From an uncultured Planctomycetales bacterium (lineage in GTDB: Bacteria; Planctomycetota; Phycisphaerae; UBA1845; PWPN01), in NCBI GenBank assembly GCA_964617875.1, contig CAZUAI010000006.1:42877-106876 (forward strand): 64,000 nucleotides of DNA. Direction: 5' to 3'. A program made the translations under genes and the position numbers. The notes under the pieces are model-generated. The model had not been told where the DNA came from. It saw only the letters and a list, made by a program, of their open reading frames with translations, and searched no databases. Shown piece by piece: positions 7,840 through 22,874 of the stretch (the first letter of the stretch is position 1; every line of letters begins with the position of its first letter).

Positions 7840-7916
7840 GACACCGCAGCCAGTCCACGACAAGCCTGCTCAACGTCGCCGCAATCACGGCCGCTCCGGG
7901 GGCTTGTCCGTCCCCG

Positions 7917-9632: not shown

Positions 9633-9633
9633 C

Positions 9634-10344
9634 TCAGTCCATTCTCGCCCGTTGAAGCATCCGGGCCAGGTCCTCCCGAATCGGGGCCTCCACCGGCAAC
9701 GCACCGATGGCCTCCAGGGCGGGGGTCCGGTCGTATTCCGCCCGCCGGCTCTGAACCGCGCCGTCCTCCCACAGCGCATACGGCGCCCGCGCATCACCAT
9801 CCAGCGGCTGACCGAGCGAGCCGGGATTGACGATCTGCAGGGTTCCGTGGCGGCGGATCAGCGGGAGGTGCGTGTGGCCCGCCACGAGTAGGTCGGCCAG
9901 AACCCTGCCGGCGACGTCGTCGAGGATCGCATCGCATCCCTGGGGGGTCAGGCGGTAGTCGTACAGAGGGTCGATGGGCGTCGCATGCGTCACGGCGAAC
10001 GGAACGCCGCCGATTTCGCATCGCAGGCTCAGCGGAAGCCGGCCCAGCCACGCCAGGTCGTCCGGGCCCAGCTGCGCGCGGGTCCAGTCCCGCATGGCCA
10101 GGGCCAGGGGCTGCTTGGCCGGGCTGGCCTTGGGATCGGCCAGGAAGGCGACGGCATGGTCATGGTTGCCGCGCACGGCGATCGCCTCGTGCTGCCGAAG
10201 CCACGCCACCGCAGCCCCGGGGGCCGGACCGTAGTTCACCGTGTCGCCGGCGCAGATGACGTGGTCGAACCGCCCGGCGTCGCGTTCCACGGCGGCGAGG
10301 GCCCAGGGGTTGGCATGGATATCAGAAAGCATCAGAATCCGCAT
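9634..10344 (-). CDS. metallophosphoesterase (calcineurin-like, YfcE-type)
   Basis: [12 protein letters not shown]...GDTVNYGP...GNHD...GHTH motifs. Start is uncertain; the ORF extends to 10413, and 10344 is the first Met of the phosphoesterase fold. The stop lies 1 nt from the ZnR/HEAT ATG. Confidence 0.7.
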
Positions 10345-10536
10345 CGCCCAAACCATCTCCGAACCCGTGACCCATGGCGTCATCGTCGCCGTCGGCCCCC
10401 GGCCGGGACGCATCGCGTCCGCAGTATATCAAGGGGGACCGGGCGGCTGGGCATACCCGTACACGAACCCGGCCGGTTTTCGCTTCCGGTGGGGTTGCTT
10501 GCTGCCGCGCTCAGTCGGTGCGGACCCCCACCCAGG

Positions 10537-10603
10537 ACAGCGGGTAGGAGTCATCAGGCTCCCCGACGGGGAACCAATTCACGGCGGACTCCATCGCCCG
10601 CCG
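10537..10603 (-). ncRNA. fluoride riboswitch (crcB RNA motif), copy 1
   Basis: Minus-strand RNA GGGCGAUGGAGUCCGCCGUGAAUUGGUUCCCCGUCGGGGAGCCUGAUGACUCCUACCC matches the GGCGAUGGAGUyCGCC...CUGAUGAyUCCUrC consensus, with an inserted hairpin. It is one of three near-identical copies in the window. Confidence 0.8.
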
Positions 10604-10604
10604 G

Positions 10605-10633
10605 ATCTTAGCGTGAACGCTGTGGGGCCGCAA
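10605..10633 (-). promoter_or_regulatory. sigma70-like promoter for riboswitch copy 1 (-35 TTGCGG, 17-nt spacer, -10 TAAGAT)
   Basis: Minus strand reads CCTTGCGGccccacagcgttcacgcTAAGATccggcGGGCGAUGG. The same TTGCxx-17-TAxxAT architecture precedes copies 2 and 3. Confidence 0.5.
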
Positions 10634-10855
10634 GGACGCCTTCAGGGCGAGACGGGGCGCCGCGAAGGCCGAGCGGACGCCCGCCTTCGGTTGCCGGGCA
10701 GGCTTGACTTTGGACGCGCCCGGCGTACCGTGCCCGGTTTGCCGAGGCCGGGCGGTTGTGCGGCGCGTGATGATCTGCACGCCCCGGTTCGATGGAGCCT
10801 GCTTGCGGAACGAGACGACAGCCCCGAGTCGTACTGATCCCGGGATCCTCGCGCC

Positions 10856-13483
10856 ATGCCGATTCTGCCCAGCATCATACTGCCCAAGAACCTGGTGGCC
10901 GCCCTGAAACGTCACTCGTCGGACATCCGTGTTGCGCCGCTTCTGCTGGAAACGGCCTCCGTTGCGGCGCCTCTGGCTCTTGACAAGCTGGGGACAACAG
11001 CGAACGGGCTAAGCGAAGAAGCGGCTCAGGCGCGCCTGGAAGAGCACGGTCCGAATGTCGTTGCGCAGGAGCATCGGCACGGCAAGCTCGTCCTCCTGGG
11101 CAAGGCACTGATCAATCCCCTGGTGATCCTGCTGCTCATTCTGGCCGCGGTGTCGTTCCTCACCGGCGATAACCGCGCGGGAACCGTCATGTCGTTGATG
11201 GTCGTCCTCGGCGTGGTGCTGCGATTCGTTCAGGAATCGCGGGCCGATACCGCCGCGGCCAGACTGAAGTCCATGATCAGCGTAACCGCAACGGTCGTCC
11301 GCGAGGGGCGGACGCGAGAGATTCCGCTGGCCGATCTGGTGCCGGGCGATGTGGTCAGGCTTGCCGCCGGGGACATGATCCCGGCCGATCTTCGGCTCAT
11401 TTCCGCCAAGGATCTGTTTATCATACAGGCAAGCCTGACCGGCGAGTCGCTTCCCATTGAGAAGTTCGAGGTGACGGAATCGAACGGAAAACCAGCTCTT
11501 GAACTCCGGAATCTTTGCTTCCTGGGCACCAGTGTGGAGAGCGGAACGGCCACCGGGGTAGTCGTGGCCACCGGCTTGCAGACCTACCTGGGAACCATGG
11601 CCAGAGCCTTGGCCGGCGAGCAGGCACAAACCAGCTTCGACAAGGGGGTCAGTCGATTCACGTGGCTCATGATCCGCTTCATCGCCGTGATGGTGCCGCT
11701 GGTGTTTGTTATCAACGGCCTCACCAAGCATGACTGGCACGAAGCATTCTTCTTTGCGGTGGCGGTCGCGGTAGGCATGACGCCCGAGATGCTGCCGATG
11801 ATCGTGACCGTCTGCCTGTCGAAGGGCGCTCTGGCCATGTCCCGTCGCAAGGTCATCGTCAAGCGGCTCAACTCCATCCAGAATCTTGGTGCGATGGACG
11901 TGCTCTGCACCGACAAGACCGGCACGCTCACCATGGACCACGTGATTCTGGAGAAACATTGCGACGTCTTTCGGCGGGAGGATGATGGCGTCCTGATCCT
12001 GGCGTATCTCAACAGCCACTTCCAGACCGGCCTCAAGAATGTGCTGGACCGAGCCATCCTGGACCATCGGGAAGTCCACGACATGGTCTCCATCGCTGAC
12101 CACCTGAAAGTGGACGAGATCCCGTTCGATTTCTCGCGCAAGCTGATGTCCGTCGTCGTGCAGTTGCCGGAAGGAGGCCGTCGGCTCATCTGCAAGGGCG
12201 CGCCCGAAGTCGTCTTCCAGAGATGCAGCCAGTTTGAGGTTAAGGACCGGACGTACCCCATGCGGCAGGTCTACATTGACGATCTTCGCGAAGAGTACGA
12301 CGAACTCAGCGCCGATGGCTTCCGTGTGCTGGCCATTGCTCACAAGGATCTGGAGCCGAAGGCCGCCTATTCCCGAGAGGATGAGTACGACCTGACGTTG
12401 AATGGCTACGTGGCCTTTCTTGATCCTCCGAAGGATTCCGCCGGGCCCGCGATCGAGGCGCTTGGCAAGCACGGCGTCGCCGTCAAGGTTCTCACGGGAG
12501 ACAACGATCTGGTCAGCCGAAAGATCTGTCATGAGGTCGGCATCCCGAGCGAGGAGGTATTGCTTGGCCCGCAAGTCGAGGCCATGTCCGATGCCGAGCT
12601 GGCGCATGCCGCGGAGCACACGTCCCTGTTTGCCCGCCTTTCTCCGGCCCACAAACAGCGGATTATCCGTGCGCTGCAGGGGAACGGACACGTGGTCGGT
12701 TTTCTGGGCGACGGAATCAATGACTCGCCCGCCCTCCGCACCGCCGATGTGGGAATCTCCGTCGATACCGCCGTCGATATCGCCAAGGAAGCCGCCGACG
12801 CCATCCTGCTCGAAAAGAGCCTCATGGTGCTGGAGGAAGGCGTCCTCGAAGGACGCAAGGTCTTCGCCAACATCCTCAAGTACATCCGCATGGGAGCCAG
12901 CTCGAACTTCGGCAACATGTTCAGCGTGCTGGGGGCGAGCGTCTTTCTGCCGTTCGTGCCAATGGCCCCGATCCAGATCCTTACCAATAACCTGCTGTAT
13001 GACTTCTCGCAGGTTCCCATTCCGACGGACAACGTGGACCCCGAACAGATTGCCAAGCCCCGACCATGGTCGATGAATGAGATTACTCGGTTCATCCTCT
13101 TCATTGGCCCGTGCAGTTCGATTTTCGATTACACGACCTATTTCATCATGCTTTACGTCTTCCGTTGCTGGAGCCCCGACCGTGCGTCGTTGTTCCAAAC
13201 CGGCTGGTTCGTGGAATCCCTTATGACGCAGACGCTCATCATTCACATCATCCGGACCAACCGGATCCCGTTCCTGCAGAGCCGCGCCAGCCTGCCTCTC
13301 TCGATTACTACGCTGTTGATCATGGGTATCGGGATGTGGCTGCCGTTTTCACCTGTTGCATCTTCACTGGGCTTTACGCCACTGCCCGGTCTGTACTGGC
13401 CGCTGCTCTTCCTGACGTTGCTCTGCTACGGTTTGCTCACGCAGGCCGCCAAGACCTGGCTTCTGCGTAAGGCGTGGATCTGA
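10856..13483 (+). CDS. mgtA: magnesium-translocating P-type ATPase
   Basis: 875 aa with DKTGTLT, TGDN and GDGINDSPAL motifs and the typical MgtA N-terminus. Confidence 0.9.
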   Translation: MPILPSIILPKNLVAALKRHSSDIRVAPLLLETASVAAPLALDKLGTTANGLSEEAAQARLEEHGPNVVAQEHRHGKLVLLGKALINPLVILLLILAAVSFLTGDNRAGTVMSLMVVLGVVLRFVQESRADTAAARLKSMISVTATVVREGRTREIPLADLVPGDVVRLAAGDMIPADLRLISAKDLFIIQASLTGESLPIEKFEVTESNGKPALELRNLCFLGTSVESGTATGVVVATGLQTYLGTMARALAGEQAQTSFDKGVSRFTWLMIRFIAVMVPLVFVINGLTKHDWHEAFFFAVAVAVGMTPEMLPMIVTVCLSKGALAMSRRKVIVKRLNSIQNLGAMDVLCTDKTGTLTMDHVILEKHCDVFRREDDGVLILAYLNSHFQTGLKNVLDRAILDHREVHDMVSIADHLKVDEIPFDFSRKLMSVVVQLPEGGRRLICKGAPEVVFQRCSQFEVKDRTYPMRQVYIDDLREEYDELSADGFRVLAIAHKDLEPKAAYSREDEYDLTLNGYVAFLDPPKDSAGPAIEALGKHGVAVKVLTGDNDLVSRKICHEVGIPSEEVLLGPQVEAMSDAELAHAAEHTSLFARLSPAHKQRIIRALQGNGHVVGFLGDGINDSPALRTADVGISVDTAVDIAKEAADAILLEKSLMVLEEGVLEGRKVFANILKYIRMGASSNFGNMFSVLGASVFLPFVPMAPIQILTNNLLYDFSQVPIPTDNVDPEQIAKPRPWSMNEITRFILFIGPCSSIFDYTTYFIMLYVFRCWSPDRASLFQTGWFVESLMTQTLIIHIIRTNRIPFLQSRASLPLSITTLLIMGIGMWLPFSPVASSLGFTPLPGLYWPLLFLTLLCYGLLTQAAKTWLLRKAWI

Positions 13484-13787
13484 AATGAAGCGGCCGGCGA
13501 TGAATGCCGTATGACCGCGAGCGGGGCGGCATCACCATAGTGTTGCGGATCCCGACCAGATCACATAGAATCGGGTTGGCGATGGGGTTCGCCAGCGTCC
13601 CGACCCGCCGTGGCTCGGACCAACCGCCTGCCCGACGACAGGCTGATAACCCCTGCTGAACTGCGTGCTACGTTCCGGCAGGGTATCAGCCGCTCAATCT
13701 CAACTCTGTCGAACGACGACGCAGCCAGAAGGATCGCTCCGGCCGTTCTGCTTCGCGCTCGGGACGGAGCCTTCGGAGAGCGAGCGG

Positions 13788-15902
13788 ATGAACGAACATC
13801 ATCAACGGTGTATCGCCACCACACTGCGTCATATCGACGGCGTGTTCGCCGAGATCGAGGGGATTCTGGCCGCCATCGGCACGGGTTCGCCGCTGTCCCA
13901 GTACGCCCTGGACCTGGAGCCGATGCAGCGTGGGGTCGTCGAGGACCACCTGCACCGGATTCGGGAGGAGATGGTGGAGGCGATGAAACGGCTCGGCATT
14001 CCGCTGGACGGGCGTCGGACCAGCGCCTGCTGGTCCATCCGCAATCGCCTGCTCGGGGCGTCGATCGCGATCGCCGAGATGGAGCCGCCTCATCTTCGGG
14101 GGTACGGGGCACTGGATGCGCACGACAAGGCCGAGATCACGCGGGTCTGTGCGGAAATGGAACGGCTGATCGGCCGGGTCGATTCGTATCTGGCCCGCGT
14201 GCACGGCGGCGACCTGGCGCAACGAATCGCGCATCTGGAAGGTACGCCGGTGGATCGCGACTTGCTCACCACCCTGGAGCAGATCATCGGCAGGCACCAT
14301 CTGATCGAGCTGCGGCCCGCGCTCGACGTGATCCTCCATCGCCTGGAATCACCCCAGTTCGAGATCGCCTTTTTCGGTCGCGTCAGCTCCGGGAAATCCT
14401 CGCTGCTCAACCACATCCTCGGCGAAAGCGTCCTGCCCGTGGGCATTACCCCGGTGACCGCGGTGCCGACCCGGCTGCGACGCGGGGAGCGGCCGGAGAT
14501 GGTGGTTCACTTCGAGATCTCGTCGCCCGCCCGCCTGCCCATCGATCAGGTCGCCGAATTCGTGACGGAAGAAGGCAATCCGCGAAACCGTCGCCGGGTG
14601 AAGTGGGTTGAGGTGACGGTCTCCACGGCGCAGTGCTCCGAGGGCGTCGTGTTCGTGGACACTCCCGGCGTCGGATCGCTGGCCACCGTCGGCGCGGCCC
14701 AGACCATGGCGTACCTGCCGCGATGCGATCTCGGAGTCCTGTTGCTCGACGCCGGTTCGACCCTGCACCAGGAAGACCTCCGGATCCTGCAGGGTTTCGA
14801 GGAAGCGGCCATTCCGGCGATGGTCCTGCTCAGCAAGTGCGACCTGCTCCGCGCGGATGACCGGCAACGCATGATTCACTACGTCGAACAGCAGGTTCAC
14901 GAGGCCTTGGGGCTTTCGATCGTCGTGGCGCCGGTGAGTACCGTCGGCCCGGATGCGCATCTGGCCCACGAATGGTTCGAGGCGCATGTCCGTCCGATCA
15001 TGCGGAGGCACCGGGAGCTGACGGCCGCTTCGATTCGGCGAAAGGTCGGAGCGCTCCAGGAAACGCTTATCGCGACGTTGAGCAGTATGCTCCGCCGGAG
15101 AAGCGGCCGCTCCGCACCCGTAGCGCGTGACAGCGCCGAGGCGGCCCGGCTTCTGGAGGAGGCCGCGACGCGCATCGCCCGGTTCACGGAATGGGCCGCG
15201 GATTTCGATGCCCGCCGGACTTCGGAGGATGTGGCGCGGCTGATCGAAGACGCCGCCGTGCAGATGGTGCCGGGGCGGGGCGGCGGCCAGACCCCGCCGG
15301 TCGGTCTTCGCGACGTTCTGCTGACGCGGCTGGCGACCGAGGCGTCGTCGTTCCGGGACGGCGTCATCGGGTTGCAGGCCGACCTGACGAACACGTTGAT
15401 TCAGCTGGGCGAAAAGGTCGGCAGCATCGGAGGCCCTGAGGCCCGGAGGCTGGAGATGTCCCTGACCCCGCTTCCGCCGGCCCGCGAGGAGAATCTGGCC
15501 GCGATTCCCGACATTCGTCCGTCGAAGTTGCTCATGTCGTGGCGATGGCTTGCGCGGGCAAGGCTGCGTGCGGGCCTGCGTCGTCACTGCCGTTGGCCGA
15601 TCGAGACGGCGCTTGGCGATCATCGTCGCGAGTTGCGAACGTGGTTGAAAACCAACCTGGACCGCCTCGTGGAGGCCTACGAAACCCATGCCGGTGTGTA
15701 CCGGGAGGAACTGCGCCGCGCCACCGAGGCGTCGGGAGACGGCGGACGCGCCGAAGATTCCTCACTGGAAGAGGATCTGGACAGGTTGCAACGGCTCGCG
15801 GGACGGTTCCGCGAGCCGCAAAGCCCGTCCACCGCGGGCGAGCCGGCAGAGTCGGCCCCGACCGGACAGGGCGACGGGACGGTTCCGGTGCAGGCCTGTT
15901 GA
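13788..15902 (+). CDS. dynamin-like GTPase (DLP-C) with ~190-aa helical N-terminal extension
   Basis: P-loop GRVSSGKSSLLN, G3 DTPGVGS, G4 SKCD. cGGAGAG lies 7 nt before ATG 13788. The ORF is open from 13665. Confidence 0.7.
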   Translation: MNEHHQRCIATTLRHIDGVFAEIEGILAAIGTGSPLSQYALDLEPMQRGVVEDHLHRIREEMVEAMKRLGIPLDGRRTSACWSIRNRLLGASIAIAEMEPPHLRGYGALDAHDKAEITRVCAEMERLIGRVDSYLARVHGGDLAQRIAHLEGTPVDRDLLTTLEQIIGRHHLIELRPALDVILHRLESPQFEIAFFGRVSSGKSSLLNHILGESVLPVGITPVTAVPTRLRRGERPEMVVHFEISSPARLPIDQVAEFVTEEGNPRNRRRVKWVEVTVSTAQCSEGVVFVDTPGVGSLATVGAAQTMAYLPRCDLGVLLLDAGSTLHQEDLRILQGFEEAAIPAMVLLSKCDLLRADDRQRMIHYVEQQVHEALGLSIVVAPVSTVGPDAHLAHEWFEAHVRPIMRRHRELTAASIRRKVGALQETLIATLSSMLRRRSGRSAPVARDSAEAARLLEEAATRIARFTEWAADFDARRTSEDVARLIEDAAVQMVPGRGGGQTPPVGLRDVLLTRLATEASSFRDGVIGLQADLTNTLIQLGEKVGSIGGPEARRLEMSLTPLPPAREENLAAIPDIRPSKLLMSWRWLARARLRAGLRRHCRWPIETALGDHRRELRTWLKTNLDRLVEAYETHAGVYREELRRATEASGDGGRAEDSSLEEDLDRLQRLAGRFREPQSPSTAGEPAESAPTGQGDGTVPVQAC

Positions 15903-15914
15903 ATCGGCAGATCG

Positions 15915-17705
15915 TCAACCGGGCAGAAAGGCTGCCTCCGGGCGCCAGGGGAAACACAGACTCCGTTGGCCGACAAGCTGCGTCAATGCGCGTCGATGGG
16001 CCTCGGTCTCGTCGCGGTTTTCGAGGCTGCGCCGCAGGGCGTCGTGCTTTATCGCGAAGCTCTGCATGTCCTCGGCCAGCGCGCCGAGGTGTCGTGCGGC
16101 TTCCCGCAGCAGGAACCGGCGTGTTTCGCCGTCCGGCACCAAGACGATGAGAGGTGCCAGATGCCGCAGGCAGACGCCGGAAGACCGGGCATAAGCCTCG
16201 CGGCCTCCTGCATCGGCCAACAGGGTCGCCAGCCGCTGCGTGCCGTCGCGCTCGTGGTCCGCCAGCAGCCGGCAGACACGGCAGGCGGCCTGCCGGCCGG
16301 TGAGTTCGTCGAACGCGGCCTCCGGCCCGTTCTCGTTTGCCGCGAAAGCCGACAGGGCGGTCGTCCGTTTCTCCAGCAACGCGAAGTAGCCCACGCTCAG
16401 GCCCCGGGGCGAGGAGATGCCGGCGAGCTGCCAGGTGTGCAACGGGCAGAAGCCGCCCTCTTCGGCGAAGGACTGCTGAGCGGCTTCATCGGTCGCGAGA
16501 GCGTGCTGCCATCGTCGGAGGAAATCGAAGGCCGCTTCGGTCAGGTGGTTGCAGACGGGGCAGGTTCCCGCACGGAGCGCGGCCACGATCTCCGATTCTT
16601 CGATGGGTTCGGCCGGTTTCGTCCGCGGCGTCGGCGATGAACACGGCGGACCTCCCCGCGCCGCGGCCGGAGGCGTCGGCGTCGCGTCAACCTGACCCGC
16701 GAGAATCCCCTCGCGCAGCCGTTGAATGGCGGTTCGCCGCTCGACGGCTTCCGGGTGCTGCTGGCCTGCGATAAGTCCCTCGGCACGATCCAGGATCGCG
16801 GCCAGGAACGTCGTGGTCCGCTGGTCGGTCAGGAAATCCGCCAGCGCCGCCTCCAGGGCCGGAAGCCCGCTCTGTGCCAATCCGTGTGCGTCCCGCGCGG
16901 CTCGGGCCGCCAGCGCCGCCCGCGACGACAGGGGAAACAGGGGCGGCCGCGCCGCGCCCATCCGACGGGAGAGATTGTCGCCGATGAACCGCAGGGCAGC
17001 CTCCCGCTCCGCGTTCGCCAGCAGGTCCATCTTGTTGACGACGAAGAAGACCTTGCGGACATGCGCGCGGAGGCGGTCCAGGAACTCCAGTTCCGTCGCG
17101 GCCAGCGGACCGTCGGCGCTGGTCACGAACAGAACCGCATCGCACTGGGGGACGAAGGCATACGTCGTTGCGGTGTTCGCTTCGATGGCCGAGCCGATGC
17201 CGGGCGTATCCACGAACTCCAATCCACGCCGCAGGAAGGGCGACGGGAACTCCACGTATACCGCCTTGATTCGCTTCCGGTTGGCCGGATTGCCCGTCTC
17301 CGTCACGTACTCGGGCAGCGCCGAAATCGGGGCTTCGTCATCGAACGACCGGTTCTGACGGGAAATGACCAGCCGTTCCTCCGGACCGAACCGCAGGATG
17401 GTAATGGCGGACGTGAGCGGCAGGATGCCCGTCGGCAGAAGCTCCCGGCCGACGATGGCGTTCATGAGCGAACTCTTGCCGCGTTTGAACTGGCCCACAA
17501 CGGCCAGGGTGAAGCGGTCTTCGGCCAGCTTGACCATCAATTCATGGCAGGCGGCGACCCGGTCATCCCCGCCGTGCCGGCCGAGCCAATGGTCCAGGGC
17601 GCGAACCTGCCGTGCCACCGCCTGCCTGGCCCGCACGTAGGCCCTCAGACGCGACGAATCGGACTCGAGCGGGGACACCGCCGGACTCGTGGGCGACGGC
17701 ATCAT
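15915..17705 (-). CDS. dynamin-like GTPase (DLP-B) with Cys-rich C-terminal domain
   Basis: GQFKRGKSSLMN, DTPGIGS, NKMD. The C-terminus carries CPVC...CPLH...CRVC...CLRH. Its ATG overlaps the DLP-A stop (ATGA). Confidence 0.8.
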   Translation of the reverse strand: MMPSPTSPAVSPLESDSSRLRAYVRARQAVARQVRALDHWLGRHGGDDRVAACHELMVKLAEDRFTLAVVGQFKRGKSSLMNAIVGRELLPTGILPLTSAITILRFGPEERLVISRQNRSFDDEAPISALPEYVTETGNPANRKRIKAVYVEFPSPFLRRGLEFVDTPGIGSAIEANTATTYAFVPQCDAVLFVTSADGPLAATELEFLDRLRAHVRKVFFVVNKMDLLANAEREAALRFIGDNLSRRMGAARPPLFPLSSRAALAARAARDAHGLAQSGLPALEAALADFLTDQRTTTFLAAILDRAEGLIAGQQHPEAVERRTAIQRLREGILAGQVDATPTPPAAARGGPPCSSPTPRTKPAEPIEESEIVAALRAGTCPVCNHLTEAAFDFLRRWQHALATDEAAQQSFAEEGGFCPLHTWQLAGISSPRGLSVGYFALLEKRTTALSAFAANENGPEAAFDELTGRQAACRVCRLLADHERDGTQRLATLLADAGGREAYARSSGVCLRHLAPLIVLVPDGETRRFLLREAARHLGALAEDMQSFAIKHDALRRSLENRDETEAHRRALTQLVGQRSLCFPWRPEAAFLPG

Positions 17706-19555
17706 CGCTGATCCTGTTCTCGGGCGGCCGTTGTCGCAAGACGCTCCTTGAGCCCCCGCAGGCCGGCGACCGCCGCCTCGAGCCGCGCGATTTCCGGGGC
17801 AACCGTCGCCGAGTCTTCCGTGCGACGTCGTCGAGCGGCGCCAAGGGCCCGGCGAGTCGCTTCAATCGTCTGCCGAAGGCTGTCTTCCAGGGCGTCACGG
17901 AAGTCCTGGATGCTTGTCCTGAGATTCTCCAGGGTACTCCATCGAAGATCTCCGATGTTGCGAGTCACGAGGTACTCCACCTGGTCCGCGAGTCGCCGCC
18001 GAATGCGGGAATGCCGCAAGCGCCGCGGAAGCACTCTGTCGATCCAGTCCGTGGGAATCGAGCCGGGTCCCTGAATCGCCCACTTGTGAACGCGCCAGCA
18101 GGGCTGTTCCACCTTCGCCAGGGCGATCTCGCGGTGCTGCGGCTCATACGGAACGTCGAAGACCTTCGCAATGGAGGCGTGAACCGCGGCGACCAGTTCG
18201 GCCGCCCGGCGCTGATGGGGCCGCAGGGCCTCGTGCAGTTCGCGCTCGCAAAGCTGATGGGCGGCACCGAACTCCCGCTCGAAAAAACCGGGGATGGCCG
18301 CGGCAATGGCCTCGCGGGCGGTCTCCTCCGACCACCGGTTCCCGTCCCGAATCTCGCATTCGCGGAGGACTTTCGTGAAGAACTCGATGCTTCCGGGCAG
18401 CATCGCATCGGCGCGCATCTTGACGGCTTCCGCCAGACGCTGTTCGTCCCTGGCAAGGCGGTCGAGGGCCACGATGCGCCGTTCCTCGATTTCGGTCAGG
18501 CTGTTCTCGAAGCGACCGATGCGGTCGTCGAGGTCGGCCAGCGGCATCTGCAGGGACCGCAGAGTCAGTTCCAGGCGATGCTGGACATCGGCGAGAATGT
18601 CCCCCGCCTGGCGGGCCACCGCGCGGCTGAGCACGTCTTTCTTCTCGGTGAGCAGGAAGCTGACGATCTGCTCTTCGATCGCCGCCACGCCGCTCCGTTC
18701 CCAGGCGGCGTCATCCTGCCCCTGGCGAGCCGCCAGGCCCTGGCGGGCCGAGGCGCAGAAGATCGGCGGCGGCGAGGTGAACCCGACGTGCTCGCAGAGC
18801 GCCCGCTGGAGAAACCGTACGGCCTCGTCCCGCTCGGCCGCGTCGAGGTAATCCACCTTGTTCAGGATGAAGAACAGGCGGGCCAGTTTGCGGCGCGCGA
18901 GCTTGAGAAACTCCACCTCGACCTCGGTGATCGGCGGATCCGCGGACACCACGAACATCGCCGCATCGCACTGCGGGAGAAAGTTGACGGTCGCCTCGGT
19001 GTTGTGGCGAAAGGTCGAACCGATGCCGGGCGTATCGATCAGCGAGAGGCCCCGACGCAGCACCGGCGCGGGATACGCGGCTTCGATCAACCGGACCCCC
19101 AGGTGGTTGCGCGGGTTCGCGCTTTCGGCGACAAAACGCGCGAGGAAACCCGCCAGGGCCGCGGCGTCCGGCCCGAGGAGCCGCTCTTCCGGCTTCCCGT
19201 TTTCGAATACCACCCGGGCCGCCGGCTGCTCGCCGCCGTGCAGAAACGTCGGGATGGACGTGACCGGCACAACGGCGGCAGGCAGGACGGGGGCTCCCAG
19301 CAACGCATTGATCAACGTGCTCTTGCCGCGTTTGAACTGGCCGAGCACGGCCAGATGACAGCGTTCCTCCCGCAGACGTTCGTGCAGAGCGAGAATGCGA
19401 TGCCGGTCGGCCCCGAATTCCTCGCCCATCGCCCCCACCTGACCGGCGGCTTCCTGCAGGAGGGTTGGCAGTTGGACGGACTCCGCGACATGCCGGGCCG
19501 TCGTCTCCGGCCGGTTGTCCGAATCCGCGTCGGCATGGAGGACGAAATCAGTCAT
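17702..19555 (-). CDS. dynamin-like GTPase (DLP-A)
   Basis: GQFKRGKSTLINALLG, DTPGIGS, NKVD, and a long coiled-coil stalk. Overlaps the TPR gene's stop by 8 nt. Confidence 0.8.
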   Translation of the reverse strand: MTDFVLHADADSDNRPETTARHVAESVQLPTLLQEAAGQVGAMGEEFGADRHRILALHERLREERCHLAVLGQFKRGKSTLINALLGAPVLPAAVVPVTSIPTFLHGGEQPAARVVFENGKPEERLLGPDAAALAGFLARFVAESANPRNHLGVRLIEAAYPAPVLRRGLSLIDTPGIGSTFRHNTEATVNFLPQCDAAMFVVSADPPITEVEVEFLKLARRKLARLFFILNKVDYLDAAERDEAVRFLQRALCEHVGFTSPPPIFCASARQGLAARQGQDDAAWERSGVAAIEEQIVSFLLTEKKDVLSRAVARQAGDILADVQHRLELTLRSLQMPLADLDDRIGRFENSLTEIEERRIVALDRLARDEQRLAEAVKMRADAMLPGSIEFFTKVLRECEIRDGNRWSEETAREAIAAAIPGFFEREFGAAHQLCERELHEALRPHQRRAAELVAAVHASIAKVFDVPYEPQHREIALAKVEQPCWRVHKWAIQGPGSIPTDWIDRVLPRRLRHSRIRRRLADQVEYLVTRNIGDLRWSTLENLRTSIQDFRDALEDSLRQTIEATRRALGAARRRRTEDSATVAPEIARLEAAVAGLRGLKERLATTAAREQDQR

Positions 19556-19976
19556 GGCACTCCGAATCTGTCGGGAAATCGGCGGGGACGGAATCCGCTT
19601 GCGTCATGCCGGCCGAATCTGCCTCCGGCTCAGGGGGCTCCTGCCCCGGCCAGAAGTGGCGCCACATGCGGCGAACTGTGGCATCGTCCCGGCGTTCGCG
19701 AAAGAGCTGGGCCAGCAGGGCGCGGGCTTCGTCCATGCGGTTCAGATGGGTCAACGCAACGGCCCAGTGAACCTTGAACGACGGCTCAAAGGGGTTTACG
19801 TATACGGCGCGTCGGAATTGGGACTCGGCCAGTTCGAAGGCCTCGCGCTGGAGGAAATAGCAACCCATATCGTCGCGGTCGTAGCCCAGATAGTGGCTGG
19901 GCCGCAGGACTTCCTCGCGGATGATCTGCGGGTCGCGAGTGCGGTGTCGCCTTTTCGGCTCGTCCGGGAGGCTCAT
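19548..19976 (-). CDS. small TPR-repeat protein
   Basis: MSLPDEPKRRHRTRDPQIIREEVLRPSHYLGYDRDDMGCYFLQREAFELAESQFRRAVYVNPFEPSFKVHWAVALTHLNRMDEARALLAQLF. The ORF is open to 20030; the start was chosen at the first Met after the terminator. Confidence 0.55.
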   Translation of the reverse strand: MSLPDEPKRRHRTRDPQIIREEVLRPSHYLGYDRDDMGCYFLQREAFELAESQFRRAVYVNPFEPSFKVHWAVALTHLNRMDEARALLAQLFRERRDDATVRRMWRHFWPGQEPPEPEADSAGMTQADSVPADFPTDSECHD

Positions 19977-20018
19977 GGTCCGCCATACCTCCGTGCCGCA
20001 GGCCGACGGCCTGCCAAC

Positions 20019-20058
20019 AGAAAACCCCACACAGGAATCGTCCTGGCGGGGTTCCCGT
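20019..20058 (-). terminator. intrinsic terminator forming the expression platform of fluoride riboswitch copy 2
   Basis: Minus-strand RNA CCCCGCCAGGACGAUUCCUGUGUGGGGUUUUCUG: GC stem plus U tract between the aptamer and the TPR start. Confidence 0.5.
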
Positions 20059-20085
20059 TACACGATGGCCCCTACCCAGGTCGAT

Positions 20086-20139
20086 TCGGGCAGGAGTCAT
20101 CAGGTCGGCAGGACCGCTTAACGGCGGACTCCATCGCCA
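20086..20139 (-). ncRNA. fluoride riboswitch (crcB RNA motif), copy 2
   Basis: UGGCGAUGGAGUCCGCCGUUAAGCGGUCCUGCCGACCUGAUGACUCCUGCCC, followed by a conserved CCUGCCCGaAUCGACCUGGGuAGG hairpin. Confidence 0.8.
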
Positions 20140-20144
20140 TAGAT

Positions 20145-20173
20145 ATTTTAGGCCCGGCGGGCGTCGTGTGCAA
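20145..20173 (-). promoter_or_regulatory. sigma70-like promoter for riboswitch copy 2 (-35 TTGCAC, 17 nt, -10 TAAAAT)
   Basis: Minus strand reads CCTTGCACacgacgcccgccgggccTAAAATatctaUGGCGAUGG. Confidence 0.55.
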
Positions 20174-20188
20174 GGGCCGTCTTTTGTC

Positions 20189-20539
20189 TCAGGCCTTTGC
20201 GCCCACGCCGTTCGCCCGGTACTTGATCACGCGGACTTTTTCCAGCGTGATGAGTCCTTCCACCACCATCTCATCGATGTAGGGCAGGAGCAGATTGACC
20301 TTCTCCTCGCTGTCCACGATCTCGATGATAAAGGGGAGGTCTTCCGACAGCCGCAGGATCTTCGTCGTGTGCAGCCGGCTGTGGGCGCCGAAGCCCATCG
20401 GGCCGCGAAGCACCGTCGCCCCGGCCAGATGAAGCTCGCGGGCCTTCATCACGATGGCCTCGTACAGCGGCTTGCCGTGCCACTTGTCGTTCTCGCCGAT
20501 GAAGATGCGCAGCAACTGCGCTTCGCCTTCCAGTTTCAT
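20189..20539 (-). CDS. DUF190 (PII-like) protein, common CrcB neighbour
   Basis: MKLEGEAQLLRIFIGENDKWHGKPLYEAIVMKARELHLAGATVLRGPMGFGAHSRLHTTKILRLSEDLPFIIEIVDSEEKV. Confidence 0.75.
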   Translation of the reverse strand: MKLEGEAQLLRIFIGENDKWHGKPLYEAIVMKARELHLAGATVLRGPMGFGAHSRLHTTKILRLSEDLPFIIEIVDSEEKVNLLLPYIDEMVVEGLITLEKVRVIKYRANGVGAKA

Positions 20540-20542
20540 TCA

Positions 20543-20956
20543 TCACCTCACCACCGTCACGGTGCACGGCGCGTAACTCAGGACCCGCTTGGAGACCGAA
20601 CCCAGCAGCCAGCGCTGGAACCGGCTCTTGCCTCGATGGCCCATCACGATCATGTCGGCCTGGCGCTCGGCGGCCTGATGGACGATCTGATCGGCCGGAT
20701 GGCCTACCACGACGGCCGTTTCGAGAGGAATCCCTGCCGCCTTCGCGGCCTCGCGAAAGACGACGAAGTCCTTCTCGAAGTGCTCCGTCGCCGCATCCAG
20801 CAGGGCGGGTGTCTCCACCGACGTGGGCGGTTCCGACGGCTGGGCTACCGACACGACGGTCACGCTGGCACCGAATGCCCTGGCCAGTTCCAGCGCGAAC
20901 TGGAATGCCCGTTTCGCCGACTCGGATCCGTCATGAGCTGCAAGAATGGTTTTCAT
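20543..20956 (-). CDS. universal stress protein (UspA family)
   Basis: 137 aa, MKTILAAHDGSESAKRAF...ADMIVMGHRGKSRFQRWLLGSVSKRVLSYAPCTVTVV. Confidence 0.85.
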   Translation of the reverse strand: MKTILAAHDGSESAKRAFQFALELARAFGASVTVVSVAQPSEPPTSVETPALLDAATEHFEKDFVVFREAAKAAGIPLETAVVVGHPADQIVHQAAERQADMIVMGHRGKSRFQRWLLGSVSKRVLSYAPCTVTVVR

Positions 20957-20965
20957 GGTTACCTC

Positions 20966-22219
20966 TCACGATTCAGAAGGGACGGGCTCACCATCCGCCG
21001 TCGCGGTTGCCACAGCCGCCTGGCCGCCGGCCGATGCCGTGCCCTGTCCTGTGACTCCAGTGCGTTTCGACAGCAGGTCCCGCGGAATGAAGAAGGCATT
21101 GGCGATCAGCGTCGGGATCACGGCGCTGGCCACCACCGCCGCAACGAGATACGAGTACTGGCTCTGCGTGATGACATTGTGCGTCAGCCCGAAGAGCGCG
21201 GAGATCGTCCCGAACGTCAGCCCCGTGGACATGAGCAGCGTGGTGTACACGGCCTGGCGGTACTCGTAGCGAAACGCCCTGGTGGTGGGGTACACGCCCA
21301 CGCACTTGCTCACCACCTTGGCGACCAGCAGGATCAGGAAGGTCGCCGGGGCCGCAAGCAGGGCCGGAACCGAAACGAAGGAACCGGCCCGGATGAAGTA
21401 GAACGGCGTCAGCATTCCGAACGTCAGCGTGCGCAGCCGGCGAACCAGGACGTGATCCTTGCCCACGGTGCCAGCGAGGACCATGCCGATCATGTACGCG
21501 GGCAAGACCGCCTCGCTGTCGGCCCACGCCGCCAGGGCTCCCATGCTGAACAGCAGCAGCAGCAGGTACTTCGCCTCCAGTTCCGAGGGGCGGTTGCCGT
21601 ATCGTTTGAAGAACCACGGCGTCAGAAAGGGGATGACGGCGAAGACCACGACGCTCGATCCGACGAACACGCCCGTGCGCATCGTGAACGGCGAGAAGAT
21701 CAGACCGAGAGCAATCACCGTGCCGAGGTCGTTGATGAAGCAGGCGGCCAAAACGGCCTTGCCGAAATCCGTCTTGTTGAAGCCCAGTTCGAGCATGACC
21801 GCATAGACGACGGCGACCGAGGTTGTGGACAGGGCCACCCCCGCCAGCCAGCTCGCCATCGGGGTCCAGTGCAGCACATAGTACGCCACGGCCGCGCACC
21901 CCAGGAACGGCGCGAAAAAAGCGACCAGGCCGACGACGGTGGCCTCCTTCCACTTGGCGCGGAACACCGTCGGGTCCAACTCGGCCCCGGCCAGAAACGT
22001 CAGGACGATGGCACCCGTCCCCGACAGGAACTTGATCCAGGGTTCGTGTGCTCCCAGCGCCGCCGTTCCGGCGAGAGCACCGATGATCAGTTGGGCGACC
22101 GTGCCCACCACGATCTCGGAGAGGGCCGTCGCCACGCGAAGCCAGATCGAAAGGAGCGTGGCGAGCAGGGCGAGTCCCAGCCACAACGCCGCCGTAAGCC
22201 AGACGTCGGTCATGTGCAT
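20966..22219 (-). CDS. cation:proton (Na+/H+) antiporter, CPA family
   Basis: 417 aa, 12-13 TM, typical NhaP/Kef-type membrane domain. Confidence 0.8.
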   Translation of the reverse strand: MHMTDVWLTAALWLGLALLATLLSIWLRVATALSEIVVGTVAQLIIGALAGTAALGAHEPWIKFLSGTGAIVLTFLAGAELDPTVFRAKWKEATVVGLVAFFAPFLGCAAVAYYVLHWTPMASWLAGVALSTTSVAVVYAVMLELGFNKTDFGKAVLAACFINDLGTVIALGLIFSPFTMRTGVFVGSSVVVFAVIPFLTPWFFKRYGNRPSELEAKYLLLLLFSMGALAAWADSEAVLPAYMIGMVLAGTVGKDHVLVRRLRTLTFGMLTPFYFIRAGSFVSVPALLAAPATFLILLVAKVVSKCVGVYPTTRAFRYEYRQAVYTTLLMSTGLTFGTISALFGLTHNVITQSQYSYLVAAVVASAVIPTLIANAFFIPRDLLSKRTGVTGQGTASAGGQAAVATATADGEPVPSES

Positions 22220-22289
22220 CGACCTCCTGCCGCAGCCTTCCCCTCCGCCTGACCGCCCTCGACGGCCTTCCGGTCCGCATTCGTGGCCG

Positions 22290-22676
22290 TCACATGATTC
22301 CGAACCATCTCTCTGCCGCCCGGTAGCCCACCAGGACGGCGCAGAAGCCCAGGGTCACGCTCAGCAACAGGTTCATAATCGCCCGAAGGCCCTGCCCGTC
22401 GTTGGCCATCGCGAAGGTCTCCCACCCGAACGAGGAAAACGTCGTGAAGCCGCCCAGCACGCCGACGGTCAGACCGATGCGATAATCCTGGCGAATCAGA
22501 ATCGGACCGCTGAAGACGTAGTTCAGGAAACCAATCACCAGACATCCGATAATATTGACCGTCAGGGTCCCCACCGGAAAGGAACCATTGGACAGCCTCT
22601 GGCCCCAGCCCTGAACCAGGTAACGAAGCACGGAACCGAAGCCGCCGCCCATGGCCACCATCACGATCTTCACCAT
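22290..22676 (-). CDS. crcB: fluoride ion channel CrcB/Fluc
   Basis: MVKIVMVAMGGGFGSVLRYLV...TLTVNIIGCLVIGFL...GLTVGVLGGFTTFSSFGWET. GAGGAAG lies 8 nt upstream of ATG 22676. The ORF is open to 22706. Confidence 0.9.
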   Translation of the reverse strand: MVKIVMVAMGGGFGSVLRYLVQGWGQRLSNGSFPVGTLTVNIIGCLVIGFLNYVFSGPILIRQDYRIGLTVGVLGGFTTFSSFGWETFAMANDGQGLRAIMNLLLSVTLGFCAVLVGYRAAERWFGIM

Positions 22677-22706
22677 CCAACGCTTCCTCGCATGCCGGTC
22701 CGCCAA

Positions 22707-22760
22707 ACAAGAAACCCTACGCAGGCATTCGGCCCGGCAGGGTTCATCTACAAGGTCTCC
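22707..22760 (-). terminator. candidate terminator-type expression platform of riboswitch copy 3
   Basis: Minus-strand RNA CCCUGCCGGGCCGAAUGCCUGCGUAGGGUUUCUUGUUU: stem with one G-U, then a U-rich tract, placed between the aptamer and the crcB SD. Confidence 0.45.
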
Positions 22761-22782
22761 GTGGCGCGGACCCTGCCCAGGT

Positions 22783-22842
22783 CGATGCGGGCAGGAGTCA
22801 TCAGGTCAGCGCGACCGGTTAAGGGCGGACTCCATCGCCGCC
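22783..22842 (-). ncRNA. fluoride riboswitch (crcB RNA motif), copy 3, canonical position upstream of crcB
   Basis: CGGCGAUGGAGUCCGCCCUUAACCGGUCGCGCUGACCUGAUGACUCCUGCCC. Confidence 0.85.
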
Positions 22843-22845
22843 GCT

Positions 22846-22874
22846 ATACTATCCTCTGGCACGACAAGTTGCAA
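22846..22874 (-). promoter_or_regulatory. sigma70-like promoter for riboswitch copy 3/crcB operon (-35 TTGCAA, 17 nt, -10 TAGTAT)
   Basis: Minus strand reads CTTGCAActtgtcgtgccagaggaTAGTATagcggcGGCGAUGG. Confidence 0.55.

Follow-up and report, generated by a model that had tools for sequence, protein, structure and literature searches.

Dynamin-like GTPase genes behind a fluoride riboswitch in an uncultured planctomycete

Results

Organization of the locus

The window, i.e. the whole 64,000-nucleotide stretch of DNA analysed here, comes from an uncultured Planctomycetales bacterium. It contains a fluoride riboswitch, called copy 2 below, followed on the minus strand by genes for a TPR-like protein and two dynamin-like proteins, DLP-A and DLP-B. 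The features of this locus are as follows.

20145-20173, minus strand: sigma-70-like promoter of riboswitch copy 2, with -35 TTGCAC (20173-20168), 17-nt spacer and -10 TAAAAT (20150-20145); read from the sequence and partly from a scan
20084-20147, minus strand: fluoride riboswitch aptamer, copy 2 (crcB motif, RF01734); Rfam covariance-model match
20016-20096, minus strand: expression platform of copy 2; folding and paralogue comparison
19548-19976, minus strand: TPR-like protein, 142 aa, first gene of the operon; Pfam matches below cut-offs and homologues
17702-19555, minus strand: DLP-A, 617 aa, dynamin-like GTPase of the BDLP/IniA type, consisting of G domain, neck and trunk; Pfam, AlphaFold2 model and Foldseek
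15915-17705, minus strand: DLP-B, 596 aa, with dynamin-type G domain, short helical bundle, linker and Cys/His-rich DUF6062; Pfam and model

The TPR and DLP-A genes overlap by 8 nt (ATGACTGA) and the DLP-A and DLP-B genes by 4 nt (ATGA), so the three genes form one operon. An independent gene caller (same contig, Logan contigs) called them identically. The gene coordinates and both overlaps agree with a preliminary description of this DNA. A generic scan found no further promoter-like site between the copy 2 terminator and the TPR-DLP genes.

Promoter and aptamer of copy 2

The copy 2 aptamer matches RF01734 with 49.5 bits (gathering score 34, E = 1.1e-10), and model positions 1-64 are all covered. 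All pairings are present: P1 (GGCG/CGCC), P2 (GGUC/GACC) and the pseudoknot, in which GGAGU of the P1 loop pairs with ACUCC of the 3' tail. At the level of sequence, the crcB-motif riboswitch proposed in the preliminary description, scoring far over the gathering score, is confirmed as a genuine fluoride riboswitch, with fluoride sensing as the predicted function. Of the P1, P2 and pseudoknot cells in 94 aptamers taken from DLP loci, 98.4% are paired. Double changes affect 11 of the 13 aptamer pairs (pseudoknot 3/5, P1 4/4, P2 4/4). None of 500 shuffles matched the observed values, and slid controls pair 37-59%. P1, P2 and the pseudoknot, the last of which was left out of the model, covary across these 94 related aptamers.

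The TTGCAC-17-TAAAAT promoter earlier assigned to copy 2 is present. GGCGATGG, at 20138, lies 6 nt past its -10 element. The register TTGC(A/G)N-17-TA(A/G)NAT-6-GGCGATGG is common to all four riboswitches in the window, with identical spacing. In a generic promoter scan, the copy 2 promoter is one of only two sites in 14.5 kb, where 1.7 are expected, and is therefore not significant on the scan alone. Promoter and terminator scans being uninformative by themselves, they were replaced by the four-way register comparison, folding and comparison of paralogues.

Expression platform of copy 2

Three mutually exclusive hairpins are predicted 3' of the aptamer.

20096-20069, minus strand: anti-antiterminator, CUCCUGCCCG paired with CCUGGGUAGGGG; unconstrained fold
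20080-20042, minus strand: antiterminator, CCUGGGUAGGGG paired with CCCCGCCAGG; nascent fold with the aptamer constrained
20056-20020, minus strand: terminator hairpin GGGAACCCCGCCAGGACGAUUCCUGUGUGGGGUUUUC, then U-tract UUUUCUGUU at 20024-20016

The fold of the copy 2 leader is 5.4 sd better than those of shuffled versions; without constraint it contains the anti-antiterminator and the terminator. An interrupted U-tract follows the terminator hairpin, whose folding energy is -24 to -25.6 kcal/mol. A simple terminator scan missed the hairpin because of a one-base bulge in the stem. The leader of copy 1 (rs1), which precedes crcB, is a paralogue of that of copy 2 (rs2); the two are 78% identical along about 170 nt. 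The copy 1 leader preserves the terminator, with two compensatory changes and one one-sided change relative to copy 2. The terminator that had been placed after copy 2 is thus upheld by both its energy and its retention in the crcB leader.

The antiterminator was seen only in nascent RNAs of 100-112 nt folded with the aptamer constrained. Its energy (-16.9 kcal/mol) is weaker than that of the terminator (-24.2 kcal/mol). A simple equilibrium switch was rejected, since constraining the aptamer in the full-length leader still leaves the terminator as the minimum-energy structure; the copy 2 switch must therefore be kinetic. As modelled, the anti-antiterminator uses the aptamer tail, and the platform is predicted to compete with the ligand-bound aptamer.

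The fluoride island

The RF01734 model identified four aptamers in the window, all within a 12-kb island. Besides the copy 2 operon, the island comprises the following features.

22785-22848, minus strand: fluoride riboswitch copy 1, heading the crcB operon; RF01734
22290-22706, minus strand: crcB, under copy 1; Pfam
20966-22219, minus strand: Na+/H+ exchanger, under copy 1; Pfam
20543-20956, minus strand: USP, under copy 1; Pfam
20189-20539, minus strand: DUF190, under copy 1; Pfam
13569-13662, plus strand: fluoride riboswitch copy 3, with an insertion of about 25 nt between P1 and P2; RF01734, 44.3 bits
13788-15902, plus strand: DLP-C, third dynamin-like gene, under copy 3 and convergent with DLP-B; Dynamin_N, 2.1e-22
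10538-10607, minus strand: fluoride riboswitch copy 4; RF01734, 37.9 bits
9634-10413, minus strand: metallophosphoesterase, under copy 4; Pfam
7917-9800, minus strand: HEAT-enolase, under copy 4; Pfam
6565-7863, minus strand: MFS_MOT1 transporter, under copy 4; Pfam

A P-type ATPase is also encoded in the island. Two riboswitch units are arranged in series, the crcB operon of copy 1 lying directly upstream of copy 2. Copy 2 starts 41 nt past the DUF190 stop, and a scan found no terminator between the crcB operon and copy 2. The pseudoknot of copy 3 (GGGGU/ACCCC) represents a compensatory change relative to copy 2. The dynamin-like pair earlier noted behind copy 2 is confirmed, its control by the riboswitch being predicted; the window also holds a third such gene, DLP-C, with its own fluoride riboswitch.

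DLP-A has the fold of IniA and BDLP

DLP-A matches Pfam Dynamin_N with 86.5 bits (cut-off 27, E = 2.8e-24). Motifs G1-G4 are intact, and GQFKRGKST, T99, DTPG and NKVD show no variation among 23 homologues. The AlphaFold2 model (pLDDT 78) was compared with known structures using Foldseek. It aligns over its full length with IniA (6j72; E = 5.6e-23, TMq 0.60, 609 columns) and with BDLP (2j68; TMq 0.67, 684 columns; range for BDLP 0.65-0.67). The nearest solved relatives of both DLP-A and DLP-B are IniA, BDLP, Cj-DLP1/2 and mitofusins. [quoted passage not shown] Its initial assignment as dynamin-like agrees with the Dynamin_N match and with the similarity to IniA and BDLP (TM 0.60-0.67). No family in NCBIfam scored over its cut-off for DLP-A, DLP-B, DLP-C or the TPR protein.

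Neither a hydrophobic paddle nor a transmembrane segment was found in DLP-A or DLP-B, and the top KD19 peaks fall in the G domain. The tip loop of DLP-A (residues 477-500) has low pLDDT; P485 and W487 are invariant and W492 nearly so. Membrane binding by DLP-A might involve this low-confidence loop, with its conserved P485 and W487.

DLP-B, as modelled, carries DUF6062 in place of a trunk

DLP-B matches Dynamin_N (102 bits, 4.1e-29) and DUF6062 (3.2e-8). Its G motifs are GQFKRGKSS, DTPG and NKMD. In the model, only the G domain and the first bundle superpose on mitofusin or BDLP (mini-mitofusin, TMt about 0.5). Full-length superposition on BDLP or IniA is poor (TMq 0.38-0.44, rmsd about 30 Å). 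The trunk is missing in the model and the C-terminal half corresponds to DUF6062. Residues C382, C385, C420, H423, C475, C478, C512 and H515 are invariant. The DUF6062 domain would be expected to bind Zn. The earlier classification of DLP-B as dynamin-like therefore holds for the G domain and, on the model, not for a full BDLP architecture, the protein consisting of G domain, first bundle and DUF6062.

An HMM of the DLP-B C-terminus was searched over 80 loci containing DLP-A homologues. A DUF6062 partner as constant companion of DLP-A was rejected, the DUF6062 ORF following DLP-A directly in 3 of these loci. Neomoorella has a DUF6062 ORF beside DLP-A.

The TPR-like gene

The 142-aa ORF does not reach the Pfam gathering scores (TPR_19, 22.8 bits for a cut-off of 25; TPR_16, 22.4 bits for a cut-off of 32.7). 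Homologues with 35-54% identity are found in 13 other fluoride-island loci, where they adjoin DLP-A or DLP-B. From these comparisons the ORF is best described as TPR-like only, yet a real conserved gene; of the earlier TPR call, the gene is retained and the family match is not.

Conservation of the riboswitch-DLP linkage

The 80 DLP-A homologue loci represent about 17 bacterial lineages and Methanomicrobia. The nearest relatives of DLP-A suggest Planctomycetota as the source taxon. A same-strand aptamer lies upstream of the DLP-A homologue within 300 nt in 58 loci, within 1 kb in 66 and within 3 kb in 71. Rfam at gathering threshold verified the aptamer in 20/20 loci checked. Our own covariance model, R1, recovered all 25 Rfam matches in these 20 loci at identical or near-identical coordinates. 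DLP-A is the first downstream ORF for 59 of 129 aptamers, and the aptamer-DLP-A succession is found in the cultured genomes of Neomoorella glycerini and Moorella sulfitireducens. In N. glycerini (CP046244.1, locus L163) the aptamer, at 4867-4931, precedes the DLP-A homologue by 70 nt. Several designs of expression platform occur among the DLP-A loci, with a classical terminator overlapping the aptamer in loci L007, L056, L061 and L047 and very short leaders at others. The linkage is not confined to DLP-A: the DLP-B and DLP-C clades likewise lie within riboswitch operons, and a further, more divergent clade of DLPs is riboswitch-linked too.

Judged by gene order in these genomes, the conserved unit is the riboswitch followed by DLP-A. 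A conserved order of TPR then DLP-A was rejected, because the aptamer directly precedes DLP-A in most loci; the TPR-like homologues elsewhere are located after DLP-A or before DLP-B. The position of the TPR gene between riboswitch and DLP-A is specific to the present lineage. Thus, within the riboswitch-TPR-DLP-DLP order of the preliminary description, the riboswitch-DLP-A linkage is conserved and the intervening TPR gene is not. Most DLP-A homologues are single genes rather than pairs, so the pair and TPR protein seen here may not be the functional core. Because the linkage extends across many phyla and to methanogens, it is not a peculiarity of one metagenome-assembled genome. This GTPase family therefore seems to take part in the fluoride response of a wide range of microbes.

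Discussion

A probable fluoride-activated operon

We consider it probable that region 20016-20173 of the minus strand is a self-contained fluoride-activated unit driving TPR, DLP-A and DLP-B, with the DLPs perhaps maintaining or remodelling the cytoplasmic membrane under fluoride stress. Its parts would be the promoter, an aptamer of the crcB motif and a terminator/antiterminator platform that acts kinetically. In the absence of fluoride, the aptamer 3' tail CUCCUGCCCG would pair with CCUGGGUAGGGG, the terminator would form and transcription would end ahead of the TPR gene. When fluoride is present, the pseudoknot GGAGU:ACUCC would hold the tail, leaving CCUGGGUAGGGG free to form the antiterminator with CCCCGCCAGG. 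The polymerase would then enter the translationally coupled TPR, DLP-A and DLP-B operon. Since no terminator separates the two units, transcripts of the upstream crcB operon must also pass the copy 2 gate. The products would be a small TPR adaptor, the BDLP/IniA-type DLP-A and an atypical DLP-B combining a G domain with DUF6062.

All tests of the earlier interpretation that could be run in silico, i.e. the RF01734 score, the dynamin assignment and the conserved synteny, were favourable. With the aptamer, the operon structure, the protein folds and the deep riboswitch-DLP conservation in hand, fluoride-induced expression of the TPR-DLP operon is a well-supported prediction. For copy 2 itself, we infer fluoride-dependent read-through. 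IniA/IniC and DynA, which are induced by stress, suggest by analogy that the DLPs might maintain or remodel the cytoplasmic membrane when fluoride is the stress. We know of nothing in fluoride toxicity that points directly at membranes.

Other readings of the DLPs

In an alternative that we judge unlikely, regulation is unchanged and the DLPs are replacement or buffering GTPases, or metal-fluoride sinks, instead of membrane-repair machines. Here fluoride would act on the GTPases themselves, trapping them in GDP-MgF3- or GDP-AlF4- complexes, and they would be grouped with enolase, pyrophosphatase and phosphatases. In line with this, enzyme classes inhibited by fluoride or metal fluorides (enolase, metallophosphoesterase, P-type ATPase) dominate the island. 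The association of fluoride riboswitches with phosphatases, interpreted as defensive (PMC9971707), favours the same idea, as do dynamin-family G domains crystallised with GDP.AlF4 or transition-state mimics, two of which (3w6p, 5gom) are among the structural matches. However, the DLP clades are nearly always found behind a riboswitch and so look dedicated to the fluoride response rather than spare housekeeping copies. Moreover, the full neck and trunk are conserved in DLP-A, and a mere nucleotide or fluoride sink needs neither.

Metal-fluoride transition-state mimicry is exploited by biochemists in vitro. A speculative extension, to which we give a low probability, is that clades DLP-A, DLP-C and the DUF6062-bearing DLP-B together form an ancient machine of Bacteria and Archaea, dedicated to the fluoride response. 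GDP with Mg- or Al-fluoride would lock the G domains in the dimerised transition state, so that fluoride would be sensed directly and the membrane tethered, sealed or vesiculated in proportion to intracellular fluoride. If true, this would be the first physiological use of such mimicry.

It is very unlikely that copy 2 serves chiefly to terminate the crcB operon, or that it is a duplicate of recent origin without function, with the DLPs expressed from another promoter regardless of fluoride. Copy 2 does begin 41 nt past the DUF190 stop as a paralogue of the crcB leader, and its terminator would also end upstream transcripts. Yet a promoter of its own, with the conserved register, serves copy 2, the scan shows no other site before the TPR-DLP genes, and these genes overlap one another. 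Furthermore, riboswitch and DLP-A adjoin in 58-66 of 80 loci, with a variety of platforms, which neither chance nor a local duplication can account for.

The idea that the DLPs form an anti-phage module (Eleos/LeoABC type or DynA-like) hitch-hiking in a mobile fluoride island is most unlikely: DynA has a phage-defence role (PMC8844932) and the LeoA and LeoBC models of PADLOC match weakly and in part, with no score over 63 bits, but these matches are superfamily-level only, and the NCBIfam LeoA, DynA and CrfC models are nowhere near cut-off (DLP_LeoA_gen, 16.8 bits for 325). Membership of Eleos (LeoABC) was rejected, no full-length LeoA or LeoBC match being found. In addition, an aptamer immediately upstream on the same strand in most lineages argues for regulation rather than shared neighbourhood.

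Significance of the fluoride-activated reading

To our knowledge, bacterial and archaeal dynamin-like proteins are widespread, and few of their physiological triggers are known. The searchable literature, including the Weinberg 2010 supplement and with the gene tables of Baker et al. 2012 outside its scope, contained no link of fluoride riboswitches to dynamins, such GTPases or DUF6062; within everything searched, dynamin-like GTPases are new to the fluoride regulon. A whole set of DLP clades would thus come with a built-in, chemically defined inducer. Because NaF should turn these DLPs on, what they do can be put to a direct test, for instance in Moorella and Neomoorella, which are in culture. 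The linkage suggests that microbes answer fluoride with more than exporters and extra copies of the enzymes it inhibits. A large GTPase machine would take part, along with several uncharacterised partners, namely the TPR protein, DUF6062, HEAT proteins and a metallophosphoesterase. This would point to an as yet undescribed site of damage or means of coping.

Comparison with known systems

Fluoride riboswitch-crcB/eriC(F) units were reportedly described by Baker et al. 2012. Compared with such crcB-motif (RF01734) units (Weinberg et al. 2010, PMC2864571), copy 2 has the same aptamer class, conserved core and pseudoknot. The ON logic through a transcription terminator, predicted for copy 2, is also alike, and a canonical unit of crcB, Na+/H+ exchanger, USP and DUF190 is located directly upstream in the window. 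In contrast, the copy 2 targets are dynamin-like GTPases and a TPR protein, with no exporter or fluoride-inhibited metabolic enzyme. Its platform is made of three hairpins and a spacer, whereas in the known units the terminator overlaps the aptamer tail. The present locus also differs by its two riboswitch units in series.

IniA, encoded by mycobacterial iniBAC, is a dynamin-like protein induced by envelope stress (PMC6715688), and its structure 6j72 is the best structural match of DLP-A. In both cases a DLP set is encoded in an operon whose expression is turned on by chemical stress, as predicted for the present one. The Ini genes answer cell-wall inhibitors via protein regulators, whereas here an inorganic anion would be sensed by an RNA. 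The sequences are only about 20% identical, and IniC lacks the DUF6062 found in DLP-B.

We know of no inducing signal for BDLP or Cj-DLP1/2. DLP-A shares the G domain, neck and trunk fold of Nostoc punctiforme BDLP (2j68) but not its hydrophobic paddle, and the DLP-B model shows no trunk. Paired DLP operons are known from Campylobacter jejuni DLP1/DLP2 (5owv; PMC6104087). The tandem, translationally coupled gene pair is alike in the two cases and typical of bacterial DLPs.

Finally, Bacillus subtilis DynA is likewise a bacterial DLP. It is induced by envelope stress and carries out membrane surveillance under pore-forming antibiotic and phage stress (PMC8844932, PMC12998192). The NCBIfam DynA model gives 58-68 bits on the DLPs described here, for a cut-off of 1600. 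DynA has two G-domain modules working together in a single fused polypeptide without riboswitch control, whereas DLP-A and DLP-B are separate, translationally coupled products of an operon behind a fluoride riboswitch.

A fluoride island with four aptamers

The window contains a 12-kb fluoride island (10538-22848) with four aptamers matching RF01734, the Rfam fluoride riboswitch (crcB motif). Together they are predicted to control crcB, a Na+/H+ exchanger, USP, DUF190, three dynamin-like GTPases (DLP-A, DLP-B and DLP-C), a metallophosphoesterase, an enolase and transporters.

Features of the fluoride island (window positions)
22785-22848, minus strand, riboswitch 1 (RF01734), heads crcB
20173-20168, minus strand, -35 hexamer TTGCAC, read from the sequence
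20150-20145, minus strand, -10 hexamer TAAAAT, 17 nt from TTGCAC
20084-20147, minus strand, riboswitch 2 (RF01734)
19548-19976, minus strand, TPR gene, 142-aa ORF
17702-19555, minus strand, DLP-A gene, Dynamin_N 2.8e-24
15915-17705, minus strand, DLP-B gene, Dynamin_N 4.1e-29, C-terminal DUF6062
13788-15902, plus strand, DLP-C gene, 704 aa with a roughly 190-aa N-terminal extension, behind riboswitch 3
13569-13662, plus strand, riboswitch 3 (RF01734), heads DLP-C
10856-13483, plus strand, P-type cation ATPase
10538-10607, minus strand, riboswitch 4 (RF01734)
9634-10413, minus strand, calcineurin-like metallophosphoesterase, first gene after riboswitch 4
7917-9800, minus strand, HEAT-enolase ORF under riboswitch 4, N-terminal HEAT_2 extension (residues 94-182)

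In riboswitch 3, roughly 25 nt are inserted between P1 and P2, and the pseudoknot, GGGGU/ACCCC, is compensatory. Aptamers with a long insert are likewise present in other Planctomycetota loci (L003 7814-7903, L004 5344-5445; L numbers denote homologue loci from other genomes). DLP-B and DLP-C are convergent, with 12 nt between their stop codons (15903-15914) and no terminator, so that fluoride-induced transcription from both sides would collide. The P-type ATPase gene, situated between riboswitches 3 and 4 and divergent from the latter, has no aptamer of its own. Its homologues are found in other fluoride islands (L061, 52% identity; L026, L041, L062, L164). Calcineurin-like phosphoesterases are classical fluoride-inhibited enzymes. 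The gene for the one encoded here is overlapped by the enolase ORF over 167 nt. The order aptamer, (DUF190), phosphoesterase, enolase, DLP-B recurs in L083, L111, L118, L119, L123-L125, L141 and L142, and stand-alone HEAT-repeat proteins follow fluoride aptamers elsewhere, as in L032 (7561, minus strand) upstream of a DLP-B homologue.

Aptamer, promoter and terminator of riboswitch 2

The preliminary description placed a fluoride riboswitch at 20019-20173 on the minus strand, with a TTGCAC-17-TAAAAT promoter and a terminator. The aptamer scores 49.5 bits in the RF01734 search of the window, over the full 64-position model, against a gathering score of 34 bits. Both hexamers are confirmed; 6 nt separate the end of the -10 hexamer from the aptamer GGCGAUGG. 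A generic promoter scan gave 2 sites for 1.7 expected and is by itself uninformative for this promoter. The arrangement TTGC(A/G)N / 17 nt / TA(A/G)NAT / 6 nt / GGCGATGG occurs in identical register in 4/4 window riboswitches. An agreement this exact is good evidence from within the window for a separate promoter at each aptamer.

The terminator is also upheld. Folded without constraint, the leader (z = -5.4) forms P1, a tail hairpin and a terminator hairpin. In this fold the 3' tail of the aptamer, CUCCUGCCCG, pairs with CCUGGGUAGGGG (-16.6 kcal/mol), and the terminator hairpin GGGAACCCCGCCAGGA-CGAU-UCCUGUGUGGGGUUUUC (-24.2 kcal/mol) is followed by UUUUCUGUU. A simple terminator scan missed this hairpin because its stem has a one-base bulge. 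Riboswitch 1, in front of crcB, has a paralogous leader (78% identity over about 170 nt) that forms the same set of hairpins. Its terminator stem differs from that of riboswitch 2 by two compensatory double changes (U-A to C-G and C-G to A-U) and one one-sided change, none of which breaks a pair.

With the P1, P2 and pseudoknot strands held in their ligand-bound arrangement, CCUGGGUAGGGG pairs with CCCCGCCAGG in nascent RNAs of 100-112 nt, and the terminator's 5' arm is thereby sequestered. In the full-length leader the terminator is again the minimum-energy structure, even with the aptamer constrained. We infer from these models that the switch must be kinetic.

The TPR-DLP-A-DLP-B operon and its proteins

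The proposed minus-strand operon of TPR, DLP-A and DLP-B stands: the genes overlap by 8 nt (TPR/DLP-A) and 4 nt (DLP-A/DLP-B), and an independent gene caller made identical calls on two Logan contigs with the same region. In the interval from the DUF190 stop (20189) to riboswitch 2 the scan found no terminator, so a transcript begun at the crcB promoter would have to pass both riboswitches before reaching the DLPs.

The description of the products is retained in part. The first gene is conserved in 13 other fluoride-island loci, but its product is only TPR-like, under Pfam cut-offs. Both GTPases carry Dynamin_N. DLP-A has intact G1-G4 motifs, and among proteins of solved structure IniA, BDLP and Cj-DLP1/2 are nearest to it in sequence. 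Its AlphaFold2 model (pLDDT 78) superposes over the full length on IniA (E = 5.6e-23, TMq 0.60) and BDLP (TMq 0.67). No hydrophobic paddle was found in its sequence. The tip loop (residues 477-500) is modelled with low confidence; P485 and W487 are invariant among homologues. In DLP-B, by contrast, the C-terminal half is DUF6062, and likeness of the model to mitofusin/BDLP is limited to the G domain and first bundle. NCBIfam gave no family at cut-off for the window DLPs or TPR, and Eleos defence models matched these DLPs at superfamily level only.

DUF6062 (DLP-B residues 370-580) is all-helical with two invariant CxxC...CxxH sets (C382, C385, C420, H423 and C475, C478, C512, H515) and is probably metal-binding. 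Stand-alone DUF6062 proteins are encoded directly behind fluoride aptamers or after DLP-A. Beyond the window, DUF6062 occurs at L055 5493-6600, L027 5447-6560 and L163 6817-7536.

The riboswitch-DLP-A link across lineages

With a homologue alignment, 80 DLP-A loci were retrieved from a one-genome-per-species collection in which at least 587 species have a relative. They span Planctomycetota, Thermodesulfobacteriota, Bacillota, Pseudomonadota, Nitrospirota, Chloroflexota, Acidobacteriota, Spirochaetota, Thermotogota, Armatimonadota and several candidate phyla, and include archaeal Methanomicrobia (Methanoregula, Methanospirillum, Methanolinea). R1, a custom covariance model derived from the aptamers of the window, detected about 130 aptamers in 1.1 Mb. 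All 25 Rfam gathering-threshold matches, spread over all 20 re-examined loci, coincide with R1 matches. A same-strand aptamer lies upstream of the DLP-A match within 300 nt in 58/80 loci, within 1 kb in 66/80 and within 3 kb in 71/80; one of the 80 loci has no upstream DNA. Of 129 aptamers, 59 have DLP-A as the first ORF behind them. Covariation is seen in P1, P2 and also the pseudoknot, which the covariance model leaves out (98.4% of cells paired; double changes in 11 of 13 pairs; 0/500 shuffles reach the observed values).

In four loci (L007, L056, L061, L047) the aptamer tail doubles as the 5' arm of a classical terminator; at many other loci the leader is too short for a terminator. As platforms differ between lineages, the link was kept while the mechanism was rebuilt. 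In the complete genome of Neomoorella glycerini, an aptamer lies 70 nt upstream of the DLP-A homologue, followed by a DUF6062 gene. The aptamer is similarly positioned in the Moorella sulfitireducens assembly, where crcB adjoins the locus. MutS-like and MFS genes are near both.

Chloroflexota loci carry sub-threshold aptamer variants at the equivalent spot. Those of L034 (7819-7894) and L068 (7850-7926 and 6881-6953), at 25-34 bits just under the gathering score, lie just upstream of the DLP-A homologue. In a single alignment among these variants, L068 6881-6953 has an altered pseudoknot, GAGGC/GCCUC. In L017, a sub-threshold Rfam match (259-334) lies ~7.7 kb upstream of the DLP-A homologue, and the expected spot has a weak match by R1 only (14.2 bits, E 0.41). 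The Chloroflexota form may be a lineage variant. L077 (Malonomonas), among the few DLP-A loci without a fluoride aptamer, has a SAM-I riboswitch (4297-4415, 86 bits).

Variation in gene order

The synteny expected from the window is thus kept for riboswitch and DLP-A, but the interposed TPR gene is found in this lineage only. In the closest relatives (L003, L004) the aptamer directly precedes DLP-A. TPR homologues follow DLP-A in L010, L012 and L013 and precede DLP-B in L084, L086 and L090. L023 (11490-13107), from a Terriglobia genome, has a fluoride aptamer, then a bona fide TPR protein (TPR_1, 3.5e-19) and then a DLP-C homologue, an independent repeat of the window's aptamer-TPR-DLP order with different family members.

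In metagenomes, DLP-B homologues are usually last in operons of riboswitch, DUF190, metallophosphoesterase, (HEAT-)enolase and DLP-B; in L112, L139 and L135 they directly follow the aptamer. DUF6062 directly after DLP-A is rare (3/80 loci). DLP-C, the third dynamin-family gene, has its own aptamer in the window, L004, L027, L055, L127 and L131. Aptamer linkage extends to a further DLP clade (L145-L155) that shares only 28-30% identity with DLP-A.

In methanogen loci (L044 1690, L057 3727, L076 4951), an aptamer precedes a protein with a prenyltransferase-like alpha-alpha toroid domain, to our knowledge not a recognized fluoride regulon member. MutS-like (MutS_V) genes lie behind fluoride aptamers or adjoin DLP-A (L056 2928, L072 5856, L032 1764) and are paired in Moorella/Neomoorella loci (L163 7565-10599, L164 6746-9831). 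This matches the mutS association of Weinberg 2010 (PMC2864571), whose listed genes also include K+/Cl- transport and formate hydrogen lyase.

Possible role of the DLPs under fluoride

The DLPs had been proposed as new members of the fluoride regulon. No link between fluoride riboswitches and dynamin-like proteins, nor any mention of DUF6062, appears in the literature searched, which included Weinberg 2010 with its supplement, McCown 2017 and the Breaker-lab reviews of 2020 and 2022; for the former, an unremarked listing in the gene tables of Baker et al. 2012 is possible. Here an established riboswitch class and an established protein superfamily come together in a regulon relationship that is conserved and apparently undescribed.

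That fluoride would switch on TPR, DLP-A and DLP-B is well supported by the sequence analysis. Dynamin G domains bind GDP-AlF4-. Since, in addition, the rest of the island largely encodes enzyme classes inhibited by fluoride or metal-fluorides (enolase, metallophosphoesterase, P-type ATPase; PMC9971707), the DLPs might be present as fluoride targets, buffers or direct sensors, which is a serious rival explanation. The best-supported reading is that they would have a stress-induced role in membrane maintenance or remodelling, because DLP-A has the BDLP/IniA architecture and there is precedent among known DLPs. Drugs induce IniA, a mediator of membrane fission (PMC6715688), DynA serves in the surveillance of membranes against antibiotics and phage (PMC8844932, PMC12998192), and operon-encoded paired DLPs act as hetero-oligomers (PMC6104087).
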